A DNA stretch of 64,000 nucleotides, taken from NCBI RefSeq assembly GCF_006345805.1, contig NC_043003.1, positions 67,394,001 through 67,458,000 on the forward strand, written 5' to 3'. Position 1 is the stretch's first letter, and every line of letters starts with the position of its first letter. This document shows, one piece after another, positions 7,809-60,427 of the stretch. Source of the stretch: Octopus sinensis. Its lineage: Eukaryota. The translations under genes were made by a program, and so were the position numbers. The notes beneath the pieces were generated by a model, which saw only the letters and a list, made by a program, of their open reading frames with translations, made no database searches and was not told where the DNA came from.

Positions 7809-9730
7809 ACACCTTGTTAGTAAACTCATTAAATAATCACAGAAGATGCTTAGCAGCATTTATTATGTTGCTTTACATTCCACCGATGTTAACCTTGCCT
7901 TTCATTCCTTTCATATCAGCCAATACCTCTGTCGATGTACATTAATCTTATGGCATATCGCGGTTCACCTATCGCCGTTTATTATTTAAGCTTATGTCGA
8001 TTCCTCCGTAATATTGTTTTGAATTTGAAATAATATATATACATATGATATATATATATATATACACAGTGCAGTACGGTACTGTTTCTAATTCGCGGAG
8101 TATCACCTATCGTGTGGGGTTTGGGAACGAAACGTGACAGTCGTGGGATTACTGTTGTCGACTTGATTCCTTTGCTTCCCTCAAAACAGCGGGCATTGAT
8201 CCCTGCAGGGGACCGGCGCTTCTCTTAGAGGAATATTTACATCTCAATCACATAAACGTCGGGGAAACCTGGAAACCAGCCTTCTGAGACCAGGGGGTTA
8301 CGAGCAAAATTCGACTAAGGAAAATGACGGACATAGTTGGGTAAATATTTCCAACATTTTGTCACAACTTCCAACATTCGGTTCCCTTCCATAATAGGAA
8401 GCTAAAGCCATAACATTAGAAGTTATGAGTTTTAAAATCAATAACGTCTGTCCTTGTAAGATTTTTGAGATGCCGGTTAAAATAATACTCATACGTGTGT
8501 ATGTGCGTGATGCGCCTCTGCTTATATATGCGTATCCATGTGTGTACGTTTTACTTACTTGCTTGAAGGACACAAGAGAACACACCTTTTTATGCACAGC
8601 TACACATACCATACATGCCTATGTCCACAGAAGCTTTTTCCCTATATCTCACCTGCTTCTCTTTCTCGCTATCACACACACCACACACTCATAAACACAC
8701 ACATGCACACGCATACAAATATCCAAGGCCTTATCGCATAGCGGTATGGTTCAGAATTTCTCTTCAAAAACAAACGATCTTGAATTTAGGACTCCATTCG
8801 GCAATTTCCTTTTCTCCTGACCCACTATCGAGCAATGTTTTGCGTCTGAAATTGAAGAAGCCCTTCGTACACATAAACACACACATAGCTATGCATAAAT
8901 ACACACACACATGCAAACAGACGCGCTACTGTTTGTCTCTCACCGCTTGAGTATCGATGTTGCTTTCTTTACATGTCCGGAAATTAGAGTTTCAACGAAT
9001 AGAAAGCCATGGAATAAGATCCAGCGAGATGTCCGGGGAAGGGAGAGGAGGGTACACTAAATCCTTCGCAGCGGTTATATATAGTAGCTGTAGTCTAAGG
9101 ACCAAAAGAAAGAAAGAATGAAAGAAAGAAAAAGAGAAAAAAGAAAAAAAGAAAGAAAGAAAGCGGTGATATGTATATTTCTAATAATGAGGAATGGCTT
9201 TTCACTTCATCACGTGAAACAGAGTAAAAGCAGAGGATGTGCTCCTAAGTGAAACGCAAGTTTATTACGGTGTTAACTGCTTCTGGTAGACATTTTTTTT
9301 TTACATTAATCGTCGACGATTCAGATGATAGCTTAACTGAATAATTTGCCTCTAATCTAAAGCATAAGTGGTTGAATATTCAACAGGCAAACATGCTTAT
9401 GCAAATTACAATTATATATGCGAAGGGGGAAAAAAACATAACGAAGGGAACGAACACTTCGTCAACTCTAAACGTAAATTAACATCTGTTTTCAACAACA
9501 TGACAGAAACGGTTAGCCCTAAAAGATATTTTATGAAATTTTTATCACTGTCTCTCTCTTTTTCTCTCTCACTCCTATCTATCTATTATCTATCTATGTA
9601 TATATATATGTGTATATATACATATATATCTGTGTGTGTTATGTATATATTAAACACACGCACGTACACACATACACAACACACATATATATATATTACA
9701 TAACCCGTATATATATATATATATATATAT

Positions 9731-9779
<49 letters not shown>

Positions 9780-9821
9780 GACAGACATACCACCTAGATA
9801 GATTGAAGAGAGATAGATATA

Positions 9822-9988
9822 GGCGCAGGAGTGGCTCTACAGTAAGTAACTTGCTTACAAACACATGGTTCTAGGTTGATTCCCACTACGTGGAACCTTG
9901 CGCAAGTGTCTTCTGGTATAGCCTCGGGACGAACAAAGACTTGTGAGTGGATTTGGTAGAGGAAAACTGATATAAGCCTATCGTATAG

Positions 9989-10049
<61 letters not shown>

Positions 10050-10226
10050 TGTTCCCCCCCCTCCGACCATCACTTGACAACTGATACTGGTGTGTTTACG
10101 ACCCCGTAACTTACCGGTTTTGCAAAATAAGCCTGTAGAAGAGGTGCTAAGTTTACAAAGAATACATTTTGGAATAGATTTGTTCGACTACAGGCGCTGC
10201 AGTCAAGTGACTGAAAAGACATAAAA
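9822..10226 (+). mobile_element. tRNA-derived SINE, family A (central TA/TG microsatellite)
   Basis: GGCGCAGGAGTGGC head with A/B-box-like motifs, GCAAGTGTCTTC…GTGAGTGGATTTGGTAGA core, internal (TA)n(TG)n and a GACTGAAA tail; multiple copies in the window. Confidence 0.85.
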
Positions 10227-15648: not shown

Positions 15649-15791
15649 GGCGTGGATGTGTGGTAAGAAGCTTGCTCCGGCTTCAGTCCCACTGCGTGGC
15701 ACCTTGAGCAAATGTGTCTTCTACTGTAGTCTCGAGTCGATGAAAGCGCTGAGTGGATTTGTTAGACGGAAACTGAAAGAAGCCTATCGTG

Positions 15792-15865
<74 letters not shown>

Positions 15866-16090
15866 TGTATGTTAGTGTGTGCCTGTTCTAGTCCCTCCAC
15901 CATCGCTTGACAACTGATCTTGGTGTGTTTACGTTCCCGTAACTTAGCGGTTCGGCGAAAGCCAACTCTCGAATAAGTATCAGGCTTACAAAGATTAAGT
16001 CTAGGGTTCGATTTTTTCGACTAAAAAGTGGTTGCCCCAGCATGGCCACAGTAAAAAATGACTGAAACAAGTAAAAGTGTAAAAGTGTAA
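15649..16090 (+). mobile_element. tRNA-derived SINE, family A
   Basis: TGTGTGGTAAGAAGCTTGC…TTCAGTCCCACTGCGTGGCACCTTGAGCAA…(TA)n(TG)n…CCAGCATGGCCACAGT…GACTGAAACAAGTAAAAG. Confidence 0.85.
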
Positions 16091-16893: not shown

Positions 16894-17259
16894 ACTCTTT
16901 TACTTGTTTCAGTCATATGACTGCTGCCATGCTGGAGCACCGGCTTTAGTCGAGCAAATCGTCCCCAGGATTTATTCTTTGTAAGCCTAATACTTATTCT
17001 ATCGGTCACTTTTGCCGAACCGCTAAGTTATGGGGACGTAAACACACCAGCATCGGTTGACAAGCGATGTTGGGGGGACAAACACAGATACTAACATATA
17101 CAAACACACACACACACATATATATATATATACGACGGGCTTCTTTCAGTTTCCGTCTACCAAATCCACTCACAAGGCTTTGGTTGGCCCGAGTCTATAG
17201 TAGAAGACACTTGCCCAAGATGCCACTCCGTGGGACTGAACCCGGAACCACTCCTGCGC
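16894..17259 (-). mobile_element. tRNA-derived SINE, family A
   Basis: Reverse complement of family A with a small deletion between the A and B boxes. Confidence 0.85.
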
Positions 17260-19026: not shown

Positions 19027-19420
19027 CTCTTTACTCTTTACTCTTTTACTTGTTTCAGTCATTTGACTGCGGCCATGCTGGAGCACCGCCTTTAATCGAG
19101 AAACTCGACTCCGGGACTTATTCTTTTGTAAGCCCAGTACTTATTCTATCAGTCTCTTTTTGCCGAACCGCTAAGTAACGGGGACATAAACACACCAGCA
19201 TCGGTTGTCAAGCAATGCTAGGGGGACAGACACAGACACACAAACATATACGCACACATATATATATATACATATATACGACGGGCTTCTTTCAGTTTCT
19301 GTCTACCAAATCCACGAGGCTATAGTAGAAGACACTTGCCCAAGGTGCCACGCAGTGGGACTAAACCCGGAATCATGTGGTTGGTAGGCAAGCTACTTAC
19401 CACACAGCCATTCCTGCGCC
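19027..19420 (-). mobile_element. tRNA-derived SINE, family A (near full length)
   Basis: Ends …CTACTTACCACACAGCCATTCCTGCGCC (reverse complement of the head); tail (CTCTTTA)n. Confidence 0.88.
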
Positions 19421-28700: not shown

Positions 28701-31027
28701 CTATGGGCGTGTATTACCTGAGTGCACGCGTGTATGTGCGTGTGTGAGTCTGTGTTTCTCTGTGGGCGTGTGTATGTGTGTGTTTATGTGTGTGAGTGTA
28801 TATTGGGAATAAACTTGAATTTGAATCACGGCAGTGAAGTACTTCATTTCGGGTGATCCCACAACACAGTTATTCGCTTAAACAGAGAAGCGTATATTTG
28901 AGCAAACGCCTTAAAAACTTAATATACAAATCCAGAGATTTGTACTGGATTAGTATCATGATTATTACAAGTGTTCCATGACAAATATAAAGTAATACAT
29001 ATAAGAAAACAAAAGAAACAGTGAAATTCAAAGTTTGTAATTAAGAAGTAAGGAAAGAACAGGAACAGAGGTGAAAACAACCGGATGGACAATAGAAACC
29101 ACGGATCTCTTACTTCTTGCCTTCATTAGAGACAGTAACTGATTTCCGTCTAAACATTCTTAATCTTGCTGGAATTAACAGTTGTATTTCCTTTCTGTAA
29201 TAGCACTGCTTTGCTCCTTAATACTTGCAATAACCAACCAGTGCTCTCACGTCACTTCAACTAGTTGCCAACATTCACAACTCACCAAAATTCCATGTGT
29301 ACACATATAATCATCCCTTGTTCTCACCTACGCCAACAAAGTTACTCAACAACCGAACACGCATGCTACATCGTTATCATAAATACATATTAGTACTATC
29401 TCTTGTTCTCACCTAACATACAGTCAGGTACACCATACACTTAACCTCCAAAATACAGAAGTACGCAAACGTATATTCATGCGGGCATCATATTCACAGG
29501 TAATCACTTCTTCGTGCACATACACACAGGGGTGCGCGCCACATATTCACGCTTTATCCACGCACTCACACTTCACGTACATGCACATACTTCATTCATA
29601 CACATAAGCATTATGCACGCTGACATGAATATAGCCTCACACCGATAAAACACATTCTTGTTCCGTTGGTCATATCCGTAGGCTCCTTACATTTTTCGTT
29701 CTAAAGTAAAATGATGTGATCTGAATTTTCTTCCATCGTTTTTGCTTTGTTATTGAGAAAGAACAGCTGTCCGAAACGTTTTACTCACCTTTCTCTCACA
29801 TAATTATTTTACGTTGCACTTTCTATAAGCTGTGAAACTTTCATTTTTCTCGTTAAAGAGACTGTGGATATTCTAAAACTTAAGATATATTCTACTCGAT
29901 ATTAAATAATTCTTCTAGGGAATAAAAAAACCCAGATATTTGCATTCACCGCACAATCTTTGAAATAGTCTCCTTTGTAGCATATCTATCAGCAGGTTAT
30001 ATAACATTCTAAACATCTGTTCCACTTCTTAACCACAATCTTCGTTTAAAGCTATCTAGCTCAAACTCTCGTTAAATGATCCACCCTCTAGAAGAATCGA
30101 TCAGAAGACGGGGGACATTGAAGACCAGGTAAGATTACTTCTATTCAAGGAAATATCTCTTCAACGAAATATCTCAAAAGCAGAAACATTATGAGAGAGA
30201 TTTCGATTATTTGAGATATGAAAACAATTGGTAAATTTTTGAAATGCTTAAAGTTGCTTTAAGGAGAACAACGTTTGCAAAAACGGTGCAGTTGATAGGG
30301 TTTCTTCGTAGACTAGACCCCCTAACTTATCTGAAATGACCTCATACGTTCATTCTTCTTATTGTTTTTGCTAGCTAAGGAGTTCATCCTGAAACTAAAG
30401 CTAGACAGTTGCCTGGAGTTTAAGTTATAAAAAATTTTAAATGCTATCGTGCCCATTATATTTCACGGTAGTCTTGTGTTTTTTTTTTTTTTTTTTTTTT
30501 AGTTGTGAAATGAAACAATGAGGATGAAATCTTTTGAACTCCCTTTATCCATGCAGAAGTGAAATGATGGCTATCAGTGGGAAGTTTTCTTCAAAATTGT
30601 GTTACGCTATAGAAGAACTTGTTATACTTTATATCTGATAAAGAACTCATAATAAGAATTTTTTTCTGTTATATCAGTCATCGTTTATTTTGCAGATATT
30701 ATATTGAGGCTTCTCGCACCCGAGAAGAATTTCTATCGGTGTAGTAATCATAACATATGATGAACGGCAGTTTTACGAATATATGTAAATTATAAATATA
30801 TTCAATGGCTAAGACGTGTAGATATTTTCTTTCCCACATCGCTTTCTAACCAAAATTGAAATCTATTCTTACATAAATCTTGGTAACTTTAATCGACACT
30901 CGTGCGCGCAGGTGCGATTTTGATCACGCATATAGACGAAAGTTTGCTAACACTCACAGAAGCATACATGTGTATCAACATATATATTCACAAGCATATA
31001 TTAATATATGAGCATATATAAATATAT

Positions 31028-31342
31028 GCAGGAGTGCTTGTGTGGTAAGTAGCTTGATCACATGGTTCCCGGTTCATTTCCACTGCGTGGCACTTTGGGT
31101 AAGTATCTGAAAGAAGCCCATCGGATATATGTATATACATATATATGTATGAGTGTGTATATGTTTGTGTATCTGTGTTTGTCCCCGCCCCAACATCGCT
31201 TGACAATCGATGGTGTTTTGTTTACGTCCGCGTAACCGATAGAATAAGTACTAAGCTTCCAAAGAACAAGTCTTCGACTAAAAGTCGGTGCTCCAGCATG
31301 GCCACAGTCAAATGAGTGAAACTTGTAAAAGAATAAAAGAGT
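31028..31342 (+). mobile_element. tRNA-derived SINE, family A (internal deletions)
   Basis: GCAGGAGTG…GGTAAGTAGCTTG…CCACTGCGTGGCAC…GGTGCTCCAGCATGGCCACAGTC. Confidence 0.8.
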
Positions 31343-31363
31343 ACACACACACACACACACACA

Positions 31364-31402
<39 letters not shown>

Positions 31403-31408
31403 TATATA

Positions 31409-31534
31409 TAAGTAAGGAAAAATTTTTTTTTTTAATGCAGAATGCTCAAATGAGCATTCTGCATTTTTAATAAAAAATTTTCCTTACTTATCATTTCTCC
31501 ACGTGCGGTCAACACAACCCCACCATTTATTGAT
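31409..31534 (+). mobile_element. Miniature foldback copy of the Penelope-like element 3' terminus, in (TA)n
   Basis: 31450-31534 matches the reverse complement of 57175-57260. 31409-31450 is an inverted copy ending at the same TTCCTTACTTA point as the large element's inverted pLTR (60421). Confidence 0.85.
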
Positions 31535-31535
31535 C

Positions 31536-31624
<89 letters not shown>

Positions 31625-33706
31625 TATATATATATATATAGATAGATAGATAAATAGATAAATAGATAGATAGATAGATAGATAGATACATACATACATA
31701 CATACATACATACATACATACATACATACATACATACATACATACATGGGTAGATGGATAGATGGGTAGAAAGCTAGAATGGCTTTCATTAGAATGCCAG
31801 CAGCTGACATTCATGGTAAGTTGCACTGTTCCAATCTAATGGATTTTATAAACACTATATTTCCCAATGAAAATTGTGACATTCATTATTGTATATAGAA
31901 ATATATTCCTCAAGGTAGAATCACGCAAATCCATATTCCATTGCGATAATGAATACCATATCCTTTTAACGTTGTAGCTTTTATATGCATATCTGCCCTT
32001 AAGTGCGTATATGGCTAGAATCTGGTTCATATCTCTAATGCCAATAGTTGAGAACGCGAACACCCACATTGCTCCTTATACACTACTTCTGCATATTTTA
32101 CACATTAAGCAAAAATAAAACTAGAAATGCTTCGTATCTACACTGATGCATATTTTCTATAGACATACTTGAAAACTCAAAATTAAAAATGATGGAAGTC
32201 ACTTTGTTTCCGAGCACAACCAATTCCTAGATAGAGATAGCATATCTTAACATACGTTTAATTTTCTCTTGTGGCTTCTGAGATAAAATCTTAGTCAAAC
32301 CAACGACTTACAGATGAGATGTTTAGCCATCTGAACTTTTCATCTACTCCGACTGGGTCTGTCCACTTGAGTGATTTGTTTGAGACGTCGTTTCAAATCC
32401 TCACTGAAACATACTTTTCTCTGCGGGCAATATGGAAATATTGGAGTGATATGATATTACTAAGCTCATGACTGACCATTTAATTAAGCAATCTAGTTTT
32501 TGGAAGGTACATATGGCATGGACCTTTCTTTGCAGGACTACATAGAAATCCATTCCTGGAGAGAAATTATAGCTTCCATATTTCTTGCAGCATGCTTCAG
32601 TTGATCATAAGTTACAAACATGGTGGCAAAGACATCAAGATAGAGAGTCCTTAGTTTTCATGTGAATATTATATATCTTTAGTGTGTTTTCTGATAATCC
32701 TAATTGCTTATACATGGTGTATAAGCAATGTTGGGGCGCATTTCATAATTTCGTTCACCAAACTGTGAAAAGCGTTGCATTCCATAGGGCCCTTCTCTTC
32801 GAAATATTTCTATGGCACCTCCAAAAGGTGACTGGAGTGCTACAGCACGCACAATGAACACACATGATCCTACTTTAAAGGAGATAAAAGTTTTGTGCTT
32901 CTTTCAGCCTAAAACATGTGACTCCTGAAAATGTTTAAAAAATACTGGAATGCACCTTGAAAGATTTCGTTATCGTTAATACAGTAAACGCATTGTATGG
33001 TCAAATAATCGAAGCTTGTTTCAATATCACAACTTTCTTTTTATCATGAAAAGAATTATTACCACGAAGCACAATTATTTCTATCTTGATAAACTTCGTG
33101 AGGCAGAAATAACAAATAACAAGCATTGAATGCTTCTGAATGGAGTCGTTGAATGTGGGATAAAGATGAAAAATGTTTTAGAAAGAGAAAAGAAGTAATA
33201 TAAATCCTTCGAGTAACAGTTAACCATCTCCGAAATGCCATCTACTACTTCTTCCTTTCTACATTAAACTATTAATCTATAGTACGAGGCCTCTTTTTCC
33301 GCTTCTTATTATAGTATTTTGTTTTCTATGTTATTTTATTAGCGATATTTTACATTGATAAACGTCAGTAGATTATTGGATTGGCGTAAATTTAGTTTAC
33401 GCTGGATCTATAATTAACACTTTATAAAAGCAATCACACATTCCTCACGATGCAGTTTGTAAAGTGTGTGTCAAGTAAAACTTTGAAGTCATTTTCACCT
33501 TTTTTTTTGCGAAAGATACGAATCTATAGTTTTTCTATATATATGCAGTTTTCCCCGTTAGTACTTTATCTCTTTTCGTTATATTTGAATATTTGTTCAC
33601 TTTCACATCAATATATACATGCATACACACACACATACAAATACATATATACATGTGTAACGTGCATATATACATATATGTATATATACGTGTGTGTATG
33701 TGTGTG

Positions 33707-49166: not shown

Positions 49167-49426
49167 TTATATATAGAGGGCATTATACATACATGCCAGG
49201 AAGCATTGTATATATAATGCCCTCTATATATAAATTAATATGTTCAATAAGAAATAATTTTTTTTCGAAATTTTTTCTCTTATGAGGTTTTACGCATCTA
49301 CCTGACAATTTCTTGTTAAGTTTTCCTTATTAGTAGTTGTCCTTAATTGCTATATATATATATATATATATATATACATACCTACATACAATCATATATA
49401 TCTATCCATACACCCATTCTCAATCC

Positions 49427-50222
49427 GGAGCTGATGCGGATTCGCACCTCTTCTTAAAAAACGCATTTTTCTGAAAAACATTTTTCGGATTCCTACGTTT
49501 TTGGATGTCAGAGATTACAAATATACAAAAGCGAAAAGAAAATTTACCCCACCCCTATTTAAAATTTTGAATGTTTTGGAATTTTTTTTTCCCCCAATAT
49601 TTTATATGACGGAGATTCCGAATATGCAAGAAACCATATTTTGAAAATTTTAGGTCAGTAAATATATAGATATGTGTATAAAGAGATAGATATGAATGTC
49701 CTCATGGGGTTAAAACAACAGTAACACCGTCTTCTATAGAACCGCCGCATTCAGTTCACAAATATATTTTATGAATAAACGGACAAGGGTAAATAGATAG
49801 ACAAATAAATCGATGAAAAAGTTCAAAATTTAAAATTGGGGTAGGGAGTGAAATTAGAGCCGCTTATTAAATTGTATAACATTAATTATTAAACGGTGTT
49901 TGTTTCTCATAAAATGATGTATATTTAATTTACATTAAATTATTATTCAAGATTATTTAAGGCAACCATAAATAAAACGAAAATTATTTTCTCTTTAATG
50001 TTTATTTTTTAAATTTATTTCGATTCGTTAACTCGCTACAATCTCTTTAAAGTCGATAAAATAAAATCTAAATTGGGAGGGGGGAGGAAGAGGTGGAGAG
50101 GGGAGATTTTTTTTTTCTTTTTTGCATATTCGTAATATCCGACAACGAAAATGTAGGAATCCAGAAAAATATTTTTTAAAAAATGCATTTTTCAAGGAGA
50201 GGTGCGAAACTCCATTAGCCCC
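49427..50222. mobile_element. Non-autonomous DNA transposon with long TIRs (Mutator-like MITE), copy 1
   Basis: TIRs of about 100 bp: GGAGCTGATGCGGATTCGCACCTCT…/…AGAGGTGCGAAACTCCATTAGCCCC. The flanks CTCAATCC and TTCAATCC give an 8-9 bp TSD. Confidence 0.75.
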
Positions 50223-50250
50223 TTCAATCCATCTTCTTTTGTGGATAAAC

Positions 50251-50290
<40 letters not shown>

Positions 50291-50884
50291 AGTGTGCGTG
50301 TGTCGAGATGTTTATGACATTATGTGTGAGTTTCTCTATTTGAGTTTGTCTCGCAGAAGAGCTTGCCTTTTTAATCCCCTTAACATAGTGGTCCTACACT
50401 TAAATCAACGTAATAACTACCAGACGATCAGATATAGGCTAGAGTTGATTTCAAAAGACGATAAACAAAAGCTACAGACACAGAAAAGAAAAAGAGAAAA
50501 GAGGTAGGAAAAGGTCACAAAACACTAGGATAAAAATGATGTTTTTATTAATTCAACTAACTTTACAAAAAGACGAGTGAATTTATATATAGACATACAC
50601 ATTTATATATATAGATATACAGTTACACACACTCAGACGCACACAGACACATACATATATACATAATATATATATAAAGTTATATCTTGAGCGACAACAA
50701 CGCTCAATATATACAACAGACTGGAAATAGAAGTGCTCCAATGAGATGTATGCACTTTTTTATGTGTGTATGCATACATACATATATATATATATATATA
50801 TAATATATATATATTATATATATATATATACATACCTACATACAATCATATATATATATATATCCATACACCCATTCTCAATCC

Positions 50885-51684
50885 GGAGCTGATGCGGATT
50901 CGCACCTCTTCTTAAAAAACGCATTTTTCTGAAAAACATTTTTCGGATTCCTACGTTTTTGGATGTCAGAGATTACAAATATACAAAAGCGAAAAGAAAA
51001 TTTACCCCACCCCTATTTAAAATTTTGAATGTTTTGGAATTTTTTTTTCCCCCAATATTTTATATGACGGAGATTCCGAATATGCAAGAAACCATATTTT
51101 GAAAATTTTAAGGTCAGTAAATATATAGATATGTGTATAAAGAGATAGATATGAATGTCCTCATGGGGTTAAAACAACAGTAACACCGTCTTCTATAGAA
51201 CCGCCGCATTCAGTTCACAAATATATTTTATGAATAAACGGACAAGGGTAAATAGATAGACAAATAAATCGATGAAAAAGTTCAAAATTTAAAATTGGGG
51301 TAGGGAGTGAAATTAGAGCCGCTTATTAAATTGTATAACATTAATTATTAAACGGTGTTTGTTTCTCATAAAATGATGTATATTTAATTTACATTAAATT
51401 ATTATTCAAGATTATTTAAGGCAACCATAAATAAAACGAAAATTATTTTCTCTTTAATGTTTATTTTTTAAATTTAATTTCGATTCGTTAACTCGCTACA
51501 ATCTCTTTAAAGTCGATAAAATAAAAAATCTAAATTGGGAGGGGGGAGGAAGAGGTGGAGAGGGGAGATTTTTTTTTTCTTTTTTGCATATTCGTAATAT
51601 CCGACAACGAAAATGTAGGAATCCAGAAAAATATTTTTTAAAAAATGCATTTTTCAAGGAGAGGTGCGAAACTCCATTAGCCCC
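50885..51684. mobile_element. Same MITE, copy 2 (part of the tandem duplication)
   Basis: Same TIRs and same TSD as copy 1. Confidence 0.75.
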
Positions 51685-51712
51685 TTCAATCCATATTCTT
51701 TTGTGGATAAAC

Positions 51713-51746
<34 letters not shown>

Positions 51747-52236
51747 AGTGTGCGTGTGTCGAGATGTTTATGACATTATGTGTGAGTTTCTCTATTTGAG
51801 TTTGTCTCGCAGAACAGCTTGCCTTTTTAATCCCCTTAACATAGTGGTCCTACACTTAAATCAACGTAATAACTACCAGACGATCAGATATAGGCTAGAG
51901 TTGATTTCAAAAGACGATAAACAAAAGCTACAGACACAGAAAAGAAAAAGAGAAAAGAGGTAGGAAAAGGTCACAAAACACTAGGATAAAAATGATGTTT
52001 TTATTAATTCAACTAACTTTACAAAAAGACGAGTGAATTTATATATAGACATACACATTTATATATATAGATATACAGTTACACACACTCAGACGCACAC
52101 AGACACATACATATATACATAATATATATATAAAGTTATATCTGAGCGACAACAACGCTCAATATATACAACAGACTGGAAATAGAAGTGCTCCAATGAG
52201 ATGTATGCACTTTTTTATGTGTGTATGCATACATAC

Positions 52237-52299
<63 letters not shown>

Positions 52300-57155: not shown

Positions 57156-57311
57156 TATATATATATATATATAAATCAATAAATGGTGGGGTGTGTTGAC
57201 CGCACGTGGAGAAATGATAAGTAAGGAAAAATGTTTTTAAAAATGCAGAATGCTCAAATGAAAGAAAATTTTAATAAAATGCGAAAATGATAAAATATAT
57301 AAATATATATT

Positions 57312-57352
57312 TATTCAACCGGTTTTCGTCATTGTATGACTTGTCAAGAATA
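57312..57352 (-). ncRNA. Minimal hammerhead ribozyme-like motif (U3-A8 variant), pLTR copy 1
   Basis: TATTC TTGACAA GTCA-TACAA-TGAC GAAA ACCGGTT GAATA: stem I, variant core, stem II, GAAA, palindromic stem III region. Confidence 0.6.
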
Positions 57353-57980
57353 TTTATGTTTTAAGAAGTTATTTTAAAAATTAGAAATGGGAAAAAAAGA
57401 AAATTGCATTGTTTTTTGTAAAAGAATAATGATAAAAACGTACAAAAATTAAAAAATAAGTTCTCCGATACATTGTGAGTTCGTTGTGTATCTTGAGTTT
57501 TATGGTTGTTTACCAAAAAATTACCTTGAGGTGTTAAGATCCAAAGGGATTAAGAGCATGTGATGTGTTGTGTTGTTAAATTCAGCATGTTGCAGGACAG
57601 GAAGTAGTAGTAATTGTGGCCCTGGTTCTTCAGTTCCTGTGTTGTGGGTAAGGGAGACAACTCTTTTGAGTTCTTCAAAAAACCCAAATTATAAAACTAT
57701 CATTTTAGCTTCATTTGCATTATCTTTTTTATATAATTGCTTGTTAACTTAACTTTCAGATTTTAACACTTTATTTATATTATTTTCTAATAATATAAAT
57801 CTGCATAGACAATTGCATTTCAAATTGTCATATCATTTTAATAAAAATGATAGTAATAACAACAATAGTAAAAATGATATTTAAAGAATATAAGTTTTAG
57901 CTTGAAGTGATGAATGCATGGTATCTTTTATATTTGTGTTAGTCCATCCATGAAGAGTGAGGTAGAGAAAGGAAGTTTGA

Positions 57981-59344
57981 TCAACGAGGAGTTTGCATAT
58001 TAAGTTGTGTGGAATTTTTCAATAAAGAGATTCTCCTTGTTAATTCTCTCCTGTGTGGTGATCCCGTCTTTACATTGGTAGAAGGGGAATATATAGATTT
58101 GGGGTTTAAGTCTTTAGCACATGAGTCTAAGTGGTCACTCAGTGGAATTTGTCGGTATTCCGGGAGATTTATTTGTTCTTTATGCACCGTTACTCGTTTA
58201 CGTAACGGGAGACTCGTTTGTCCAACATAATTATGTTGGCAACCAGCGCATGTGAGAGCGTAGATAAGGTTCTCGGAGGAACAGGAGAAGTTAGTCTTGA
58301 TTTTAAACTTCGTACCTTGTTTGAAGGTAAATTCAGAGCCTTCAAGTAGAAAGGGGCAGGTACACAGTTTGAGCGTGCACATTTTTTTACTGTTGGGGGT
58401 GGATGTGGTGTGTGAAGTTTGGCATTTGTCAAGAGTTTTTTTAAGATTTGTGTTGCCTTTTGCATTTGAGGTTTGTGTGTATTTATAATGTTTTTCATTT
58501 TTGGGTCTGTTGACAGTAGACTGAGGTTTTGTATGATTGTGGTGTATGCTTCGATATTTTTGGGGTTGTGGGTGGAAAGTATGGAAGTATTTTGAGGTTG
58601 TGTGTGGTGTTAGGTTGGGTGGTTTTCAGTGTAGTGTTGTCTAGTTCTTTGGCGCGTTTTATTCCATACTCTATAAGGGTGGAGGATATTGACGTTGTAA
58701 TAGCGTTTTTTTGAGGTCTTGAAGGCGTATTTCTCGTGTTTTTGGATCCGAGACAATGGTGCATACCCTTTTAGCTAAATTGAAAGGGATATTTGTCTTG
58801 GTGTGTTTTGGGTGGCATGAACTAAAGAGGAGGTATTGTTGTGAGTCTGTAGGTTTGTGGTAGATGTCTGTTATGATTTGGTTCTTAGGTGTTTTTATAA
58901 TTAGGAGATCAAGGAATGGGAGATGATGTTTGCTTAATTCCATAGTGAATTGGATGTTGGGATGTATGTTGTTTAGTATGGTTTTGAATTCCAGGAGTTT
59001 TTCATAAGGTTCTTTCCATATGATGAAACAATCATCTAAATACCTTTTCCAGTTTTCCATTAGGTAGGTGTGGAAAACATGTCCAAATTTCTGGCTTGAT
59101 ATATTCATAGAGTGACAGTTCGAAGTAAGTAACCCTATGAGGTTCGCAAGGACTGGTGCAGCCTTGGTACCCATCGCAATGCCACATTTTTGACGGTAGT
59201 GTGTGTCGTCGAGAGAAAAAAATTGTTTGTCAGAATGAACTTAAGAGATTCTGTAATAAAAGACTTGTTAATGCGGTCAGGGAATGTCTCTGGGTGTTTT
59301 TCTAGCCAGAAGTCAATTGCCTCTATACCATACTCGTGTGGAAT
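57981..59344 (-). pseudogene. Frameshifted RT-thumb-linker-GIY-YIG ORF of the Penelope-like element
   Basis: The overlapping minus-strand ORFs 59135-59347, 58671-59174, 58495-58764, 58190-58498 and 57981-58382 join into one polyprotein through single-base indels. Confidence 0.9.
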
Positions 59345-60288
59345 CAAGACTAACTTCTCCTGTTCCTCCGAGAACCTTATCTACGCTCTCACATGCGCTG
59401 GTTGCCAACATAATTATGTTGGACAAACGAGTCTCCCGTTACGTAAACGAGTAACGGTGCATAAAGAACAAATAAATCTCCCGGAATACCGACAAATTCC
59501 ACTGAGTGACCACTTAGACTCATGTGCTAAAGACTTAAACCCCAAATTCTATATATTCCCCTTCTACCAATGTAAAGACGGGATCACCACACAGGAGAGA
59601 ATTAACAAGGAGAATCTCTTTATTGAAAAATTCCAAACAAACTTAATATGCAAACTCCTCGTTGATCAAACTTCCTTTCTCTACCTCACTCTTCATGGAT
59701 GGACTAACACAAATATATAAAGATACCATGCATTCATCACTTCAAGCTAAAACTTATATTCTTTAAATATCATTTTTACTATTGTGTTATTACTATCATT
59801 TTTATATAAATGATATGACAATTTGAAATGCAATTGTCTATGCAGATTATATTATTAGAAAATAATATAAATAAAGTGTTAAAATCTGAAAGTTAAGTTA
59901 ACAAGCAATTATATAAAAAAGATAATGCAAATGAAGCTAAAATGATAGTTTTATAATTTGGGTTTTATTGAAGAACTCAAAGAGTTGTCTCCCCTTACCC
60001 ACAACACAGGAACTGAAGAACCAGGACCACAATTACTACTACTTCCTGCCTGCAACATGCTGAATTTAACAACAAAAACATCACATGCTCTTAATCCCTT
60101 TGGATCTTAACACCTCAAGGTAATTTTTTGGTAAACAACCATAAAACTCAAGATACACAACGAACTCACAATGTATCGGAGAACTTATTTTTTAATTTGT
60201 ACGTTTTTATCATTATTCTTTTACAAAAAACAATGCAATTCTCTTTTTTTCCCATTTCTAATTTTAAAATAACTTCTTAAAACATAAA

Positions 60289-60329
60289 TATTCTTGACAA
60301 GTCATACAATGACGAAAACCGGTTGAATA
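60289..60329 (+). ncRNA. Minimal hammerhead ribozyme-like motif (U3-A8 variant), pLTR copy 2
   Basis: Identical to copy 1, in the inverted arm. Confidence 0.6.
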
Positions 60330-60427
60330 AATATATATTTATATATTTTATCATTTTCGCATTTTATTAAAATTTTCTTTCATTGAGCATTCTGCATTTT
60401 AAAAACATTTTTCCTTACTTAATATAT

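Follow-up and report, generated by a model that had tools for sequence, protein, structure and literature searches.

The short hairpin at positions 31409-31535 of the window (the whole stretch of 64,000 nucleotides that was analysed) was found to consist of two head-to-head, 5'-truncated ends of a Penelope-like element (PLE) within a (TA)n run. Like the other inverted pairs of its family, this mini element probably arose through twin priming: the RNA of a single donor would serve both ends of the cut (TA)n as template, and each end would start at a different, fixed internal site. The mini is a further copy of a known layout; what the analysis adds is a counted pairing rule. In 78 of 79 inverted pairs of the family, one outer end carries the tail and the other is tail-less and ends at a short site about 44 nt upstream. 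The term "tail" is used here as in PMC3846280 and PMC8557442. Positions with a sign are given relative to the tail end, and the coordinates of the features in the window are listed in Table 1.

Table 1 Features of the mini element and of the 3.25-kb insertion (window positions)
Feature	Position	Strand	Remarks
Left (TA)n target	31367..31410	.	last 1-3 bases common to element end
Mini, inverted arm without tail	31409..31453	-	outer end = short site, at about -44; inner end near -86
Junction microhomology, 3 nt (TGA)	31451..31453	.	at a natural quasi-palindrome of the template
Mini, tailed forward arm	31451..31535	+	template -81 to tail end
Tail, the stretch between the two end sites	31491..31535	+	in one arm only
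Right (TA)n target and simple repeats after it	31536..31744	.	
3.25-kb insertion, tailed sense arm	57175..59344	-	5'-truncated RT, linker Zn-finger, GIY-YIG, 3' region; frame-broken in the assembly
Putative hammerhead-like motif, sense arm	57312..57352	-	U3-A8 core, one extra A before helix III
3.25-kb insertion, inverted arm without tail	59342..60421	+	part of GIY-YIG and 3' region; ends at short site
Same putative motif, inverted arm	60289..60329	+	

The mini folds as a hairpin of -29 kcal/mol (z -8.7), and none of 200 shuffles folds equally well. Read on the strand beginning with the short end, its 2-nt loop is AA; on these 2-3 bases, the loop fits annealing of two cDNAs or snap-back of a short-site cDNA, and not snap-back of a tailed cDNA. 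The exact junction is single-copy: a pattern search returned two places, the mini and L062, the latter with a different junction. Among 76 measured pairs, 16 are at most 300 bp long, each with its own junction, and three of these (99, 102 and 105 bp) are below the mini in size. Similar stubs in the family span 99 bp to 6.6 kb, and inverted arms of only 10-25 nt adjoin long copies (L047, L142, L037). The mini is thus not special but one point on a size continuum, near its short end, and it is likely an ordinary insertion and an inert, non-amplifying by-product.

MITEs are short, non-coding, hairpin-forming units with a TA target that occur as homogeneous multi-copy families. The mini is likewise short, non-coding, hairpin-forming and inserted in TA, and its small size and terminal inverted repeats add to this MITE-like look. 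Unlike a MITE, however, it has no fixed length and an asymmetric tail, is not amplified as a unit and originates from an RT element. A MITE with terminal inverted repeats and a target site duplication (TSD) was rejected, as the 44-nt tail lies outside the inverted repeat, which is therefore not terminal on the tailed side, and a TSD is unreadable inside (TA)n. A homogeneous unit with a fixed internal junction and an amplifying family were both rejected on the single-copy junction. It is therefore very improbable that the mini is a MITE or another self-amplifying non-autonomous element, and the same grade is given to a deletion copy of the neighbouring insertion, of which the flanks are unshared and to which other copies are closer (see below), and to an assembly fold-back artefact. 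The junction does rest on the assembly: of 642 pieces of short-read contigs from four public runs, none of the 24 listed spans it, which counts neither for nor against the junction. No RNA run was among the public runs listed as sharing sequence with it, and all shares were below 5 words, which again speaks for neither side. An artefact would, however, not stop at one family-wide site and then resume in (TA)n, and junctions to TA are seen in the short-read contigs for either end type. In such genomes, a short hairpin flanked by TA can be the by-product of a retrotransposon, wrongly filed as a MITE.

For the inner ends of the mini (-81 and -86), run-off at the start of the RNA was also considered, an initiator-like hexamer having hinted at such a start. 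The truncation counts did not support it: there were six truncations among 36 matches for the interval -80 to -84 and six among 22 for the adjacent interval -74 to -79, a rough comparison since the patterns differ in capture. Near -172 to -176, two insertions were found among 29 matches, and the pattern-search loci showed no pile-up of inner ends at -80 to -86. ARAGORN found no tRNA. The microsatellite that holds the mini lies directly behind an older dispersed repeat of ~320 bp (31026-31345), SINE-like by size, with relatives of 67-88% identity at 9596-10200, 15676-16089, 16894-17250 and 19032-19417. Elsewhere in the window, 49351-50825 and 50804-52277 form a head-to-tail duplication of ~1.47 kb (98.5% identity) with TA runs at its bounds, either a real tandem or an assembly artefact.

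The 3.25-kb insertion has GIY-YIG matches in both arms, and these arms overlap by 3 nt at their junction. It was predicted from the sequence that this insertion and the mini both sit in (TA)n and both consist of a forward and an inverted arm, which the coordinates and flanking TA runs bear out. The termini of the two, claimed to be exactly the same, agree to within 1 nt, the big copy lacking the final C and one A of the tail. Similarly, an offset of 43 nt between the two ends holds for the big copy, while most copies have 44-45 nt, and the mini, first taken to end at 31534, reaches the family's usual tail end one base further on, at C 31535. The tail end was set at this C because read-through copies continue C-T-G-T-A. 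The forward arm of the mini is identical to the end of the 3.25-kb element at 80 of 84 positions (E 2e-33), or 95%, versus 96-99% for 39 other full-length matches among those listed; the 3.25-kb copy is absent from the 41 matches listed for this arm. The unique flanks of the two insertions have nothing in common at E<=0.1. Unshared flanks together with closer relatives elsewhere indicate that the two are independent insertions. Derivation of the mini from the 3.25-kb copy was therefore rejected, and a segmental duplication with shared unique flanks, the origin that would have spoken against the original prediction, was not found. Two unrelated donors for the arms of the 3.25-kb insertion, hinted at by a BLAST identity of 94.9%, were also rejected: the arms differ at 2 of 967 sites, and the BLAST value is low because indels and TA flanks were counted.

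The family is abundant in the genome (G000, 2.7 Gb). Two similarity searches gave 1100 and 840 first-look candidates, of which the best 40 were scored in each search; these figures are not copy numbers. A full unit of ~4.6 kb is held by locus L092, with the N-terminal part split over frames. Its 782-aa frame matches RVT_1 (E 1e-7, over the Pfam cut-off) and GIY-YIG (E 0.003, under the Pfam cut-off) and has 1377 homologues at E<=1e-30, many of which have RT and GIY-YIG domains. The frame carries DKG at 157, YLDD at 427, a linker Zn-finger C-X4-C-X2-C at 649-657 and a CxxC between the GIY and YIG positions (688-705), with two histidines further on in the translation. PLEs with an endonuclease (EN+) carry, in a single ORF, a telomerase-like RT and, C-terminal to it, a GIY-YIG endonuclease; the L092 frame agrees with this layout. 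Motif criteria for them have been described, and a CX2-5CxxC Zn-finger in the RT-EN linker marks Neptune/Nematis, Neptune being paraphyletic, while it is absent from Penelope/Poseidon (PMC8557442). Judged by these motifs, the family appears to be a C-terminal-endonuclease (EN+) PLE with RT and GIY-YIG, of the Neptune/Nematis type. Assignment to the Penelope/Poseidon clade was rejected on the linker Zn-finger, although the ends behave like those of PAc, a Poseidon element. The partial tandems, inverted 5'-truncated copies and optional tail of EN+ PLEs are all present.

Tandem read-through copies (L092, L101, L116, L135, L142) continue past the tail end to an ATG at +31, which places the tail end and the short site both inside the transcript unit. 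The region -89 to +41, a fold window picked after looking, is predicted to fold around an AC-rich loop with both end sites unpaired (z -2.9; 1 of 200 shuffles). In L092 (5640-5772, minus strand), -80 to -71 is predicted to form a 10-bp helix with +26 to +36; the start codon would lie in this helix and both end sites between its strands. A putative hammerhead-like motif lies ~140-180 nt upstream of the tail end and is identical in 105 of 125 matches. It would comprise helix I, a U3-A8 core, a 4-bp helix II and a palindromic helix III region. A hammerhead ribozyme motif in the pLTR is a mark of EN+ PLEs. The U3-A8 core is a described variant of PLE hammerheads (PMC4209133), from which the motif here departs by its extra A; an Rfam search gave no hammerhead match, only sub-threshold chance matches.

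The original prediction proposed a sharply bimodal distribution of ends in (TA)n as its test, with randomly scattered inverted-copy endpoints as the contrary outcome. In 99 loci, collected by three similarity searches and widened, 162 ends were called, of which the tail end accounts for 91, the interval -42 to -50 for 65 and other positions for 6. Thus 156 of 162 ends fall at two sites ~44 nt apart, and the endpoints of inverted copies cluster at the short site. Of the six others, five come from breaks of the alignment where A/T runs are expanded, and the sixth is a chance match 4 kb away. TA-rich sequence flanks the element outside 88 of the 91 tail ends and outside 62 of the 69 ends called short. 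A single T separates the two commonest short ends. Whichever site is used, the last bases of the element are usually C or CT and the target opens with TATA, which gives an element-target homology of 1-3 nt, the 1-nt form being commoner (24 vs 20). The short site also terminates 21 solo copies, at the same sub-positions as in the pairs, and hence works without an inverted partner. Solo stubs are as short as 33-35 bp with TA on both sides (L230, L233). Some solos (L006, L129, L143, L148, L060) carry a short inverted internal piece of about 13-32 nt at the 5' junction, a local snap-back. A number of whole insertions (L129, L141, L165/L166, L238/L239) have a second copy with identical junctions, either in tandem or at a distance of 0.7-2.3 kb, by local duplication via TA runs or as an assembly artefact.

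Tail-out inverted pairs inside (TA)n with one end of each type had likewise been predicted, and this is what was observed. The 78 of 79 mixed pairs are made up of 52/53 in the 99-locus set and of 18/18 and 8/8 in pattern searches placed upstream of both sites; in the last set the short end of L248 was judged by eye. A query containing the tail guarantees one tailed arm, so the end-neutral search is the fair test: all of its 18 pairs are mixed (p 4e-6 against independent choice, with at most 0.5 per pair). In the same set 14 of 32 insertions are solos, 9 tailed and 5 short. The only tail/tail pair is L119 (G000:C4:35974150-35978045), with the same extra C before the TA run at both ends and a junction in an AC-rich repeat. 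Locus L147 (G000:C1:98867600-98868550) holds three hairpin units in a row, separated by TA runs and each folded at -171, the position of the hammerhead-like motif. Its last unit is a short/short symmetric hairpin, the only one seen; counting that unit instead would give 77/79. Left out of the count, because an outer end is missing or lies beyond the fetched stretch, were L134, L187, L206, L212, L237 and L241, and the apparent partner of L129 is a chance match. Duplicates were counted once (L175 = L201, L238 = L239, the L141 tandem); L090 and L091, probably one insertion, were counted as two solos.

Both arms of a pair are nearly always copied from the same donor. On clean sites the arms of one pair differ by 0.33%, against 1.17% between arms that belong to different insertions. 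Of 38 subfamily variants they have 37 in common, where unrelated arms would agree at 8%, and they share 26 private variants versus 0.24 expected; in a first pass that kept homopolymer sites, agreement was 68% vs 17%. All 29 pairs with at least 100 sites are closer to their own arm than the null. Gene conversion or polishing could also produce this sharing, or add to it. The shared donor bears on a second explanation, in which twin priming uses two RNAs, or two repeats of one tandem transcript, with no coupled dimer; the pairing rule would then come from the geometry of staggered cuts or from selection against tail/tail and short/short palindromes. The template stretch copied by both arms is up to about 2.9 kb long (L093), and strand displacement would be required for this on a single RNA; both the read-through tandems and the tail/tail pair L119 suit this explanation as well. 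Two free RNAs would, however, give arms from one donor only with one active donor per cell. As for selection, a 44-nt overhang should hardly stabilise a kilobase palindrome, and the long L119 persists. The explanation is therefore considered quite improbable.

The lengths of the arms vary freely. Of the 76 pairs measured, 61 consist of two pieces. The longer reach inward, by more than 12 nt, belongs to the tail-less arm in 27 of these and to the tailed arm in another 27, and 7 are near-symmetric. A cDNA started at the short site has no tail, and one started at the tail site is limited to its own end, so that a longer tail-less arm needs two cDNAs unless there was a later deletion. Near-symmetric pairs are in excess overall (7/61 vs 1.9 expected, p 0.001), versus 3/44 against 1.8 (p 0.19) among long arms. 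At direct joins the mean overlap is 2.6 nt vs 0.8 nt by chance, and 14 of 31 overlap by at least 3 nt against an expected 7.7% (p 2e-8). Inserted or rearranged bases are present at 20 of 51 junctions, some of them alignment noise in A/T runs. Several pairs (L111, L115, L099, L145, L103, L153, L217) contain one more internal piece where the arms meet. It often derives from the vicinity of the opposite arm's inner end, which suggests that the template was switched repeatedly during the joining of the two cDNAs.

These lengths and junctions also bear on snap-back followed by erosion. Here a tail-primed cDNA folds back and serves as its own template. At the short site the strand that returns is halted or cut, and it is then joined to the second DNA end; asymmetric deletions in the centre of the palindrome would afterwards produce the unequal arms and the minis. 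Central deletions of palindromes would also leave microhomology, which counts for this explanation, and no second priming event is needed to cover either the one-of-each rule or the sharing of variants. Hairpin junctions of a clean snap-back do exist (L156, L172, and those of L147), as do the short inverted pieces at the 5' junctions of solos (L006, L129, L143). Furthermore, the divergence of short arms slightly exceeds that of long arms (0.63% vs 0.34%, p 0.053, with search ranking as a confounder), which is expected if arms shrink after insertion, and self-priming has been proposed for inverted junctions of PLEs (PMC3846280). On the other hand, the short site ends 21 solos at the same sub-positions and so acts as a start site by itself, and its counterpart in PAc is a start site in vitro (PMC11167929). 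In addition, a secondary deletion would have to be assumed for 54 of the 61 pairs, and in 27 of them it would have taken more from the primary strand; this applies even to young pairs with arms about 0.3% apart. Snap-back with erosion is therefore regarded as unlikely.

Twin priming, the preferred reading, would proceed as follows, all evidence having been read from one assembly. The GIY-YIG endonuclease would cut both strands of (TA)n, for which the in vitro precedent is the homologue PAc. By analogy with PAc, one DNA end would start cDNA at the tail site and the other ~44 nt upstream; each of the two sites has a C with a U after it, and this U would face the last A of the primer. Both cDNAs would stop early at freely varying lengths and be joined head to head by microhomology of a few bases, an order of events that we infer. 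One cDNA may sometimes snap back on itself before joining, and in symmetric pairs, which still have a tailed and a short end, the snap-back strand would anneal to the second, separately primed cDNA. A second end that stays unprimed would give a solo copy ending at either site. The template may be copied twice via strand displacement, from a tandem transcript or from two RNAs of one donor. The tail/tail pair L119, the short/short unit of L147, the excess of symmetric pairs, the junctions with inserted or rearranged bases and the divergence of short arms count against twin priming. The predicted priming at two fixed RNA positions is thus upheld as regards fixed sites, one-of-each pairing and (TA)n targets; the end-neutral solos, the near-symmetric pairs and some true snap-backs depart from it, and the priming itself we infer.

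A single RT-EN dimer that holds both sites is the likely cause of the one-of-each rule. It was further considered that PLEs insert in a programmed and coupled way: a dimer of the RT-endonuclease on one RNA would direct one cut end to the tail site and the second cut end to the -44 site, and the same template would be copied twice. This full version is held tentatively, at a little under an even chance. If true, coupled twin priming by itself would account for the MITE-like stubs as well as for the inverted pLTR and the presence of a tail on one side.

Twin priming itself is familiar from LINE-1. Ostertag and Kazazian reportedly proposed it in 2001 for LINE-1 inversions: cDNA synthesis on the RNA of the element is primed from either side of the break. 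The internal site at which the second primer anneals varies in L1, and the regions of the RNA covered by the two pieces differ, abutting without overlap. The present family resembles L1 in its head-to-head inversion and junction microhomology. Unlike in L1, however, the sites are fixed 44 nt apart and both arms copy the same region, the overlap of up to 2.9 kb giving a long inverted duplication. Twin priming of L1 also appears in PMC2246262. No paper was found in the literature searched that states a one-of-each rule or twin priming for PLEs, and the part seen of a retrozyme preprint (10.64898/2026.07.22.740005) makes no mention of tail or priming.

For EN+ PLEs, insertions with an inverted truncated copy, a one-sided tail and a microsatellite bias have been described (PMC3846280, PMC8557442), and the units are alike in 5'-truncation, adjacent inverted copy, partial tandems and microsatellite or AT-rich targets (Arkhipova et al. 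2013; Craig et al. 2021). The tail is reported there as 30-40 bp, often at one end only (PMC3846280, PMC8557442); in the present family it is 44-45 nt. In these two papers the tail is optional and ascribed to endonuclease resolution, and the inversion to self-priming on an antisense template. This self-priming was proposed in PMC3846280, and the origin of the structures is called undefined in PMC8557442. The parts of both texts consulted give no count of end types per pair, while in the present family the rule was counted and donor sharing tested. Inverted arm, one-sided tail and (TA)n targets are thus already known from the parts of the literature seen, as are two in vitro start sites with extension of both strands.

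The latter come from PAc, a Poseidon element of Anolis, for which reverse transcription was found to start in vitro at two internal sites bracketing the tail, both strands being cut and extended, and a dimer was predicted (Frangieh et al. 2024, PMC11167929). Top and bottom strands did not differ in start site (PMC11167929), a result that leaves coupling neither shown nor excluded. PAc and the present family are alike in little target homology, AT-rich targets and an AC-rich stem-loop near the pLTR-ORF junction; PAc also has a hammerhead upstream, where the present family has the putative motif. They differ in that the present family has the extra linker Zn-finger of the Neptune/Nematis type. 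They also differ in the placing of the two sites, which here precede the ATG (located at +31, beyond the tail); in PAc, reverse transcription starts inside the ORF, about 111-118 nt from its beginning. The part of the PAc paper seen does not tie the two start sites to the two arms of inverted insertions; its supplement text gave no match for tail, inverted or stem, and supplementary figures S1-S2 map genomic ends and may bear on novelty (PMC11167929). The counted one-of-each rule, together with one donor and with either arm being the longer, links the two start sites of PAc in vitro (PMC11167929) to the two ends of an insertion, and it gives a direct prediction for an existing in vitro assay of the open PLE mechanism.
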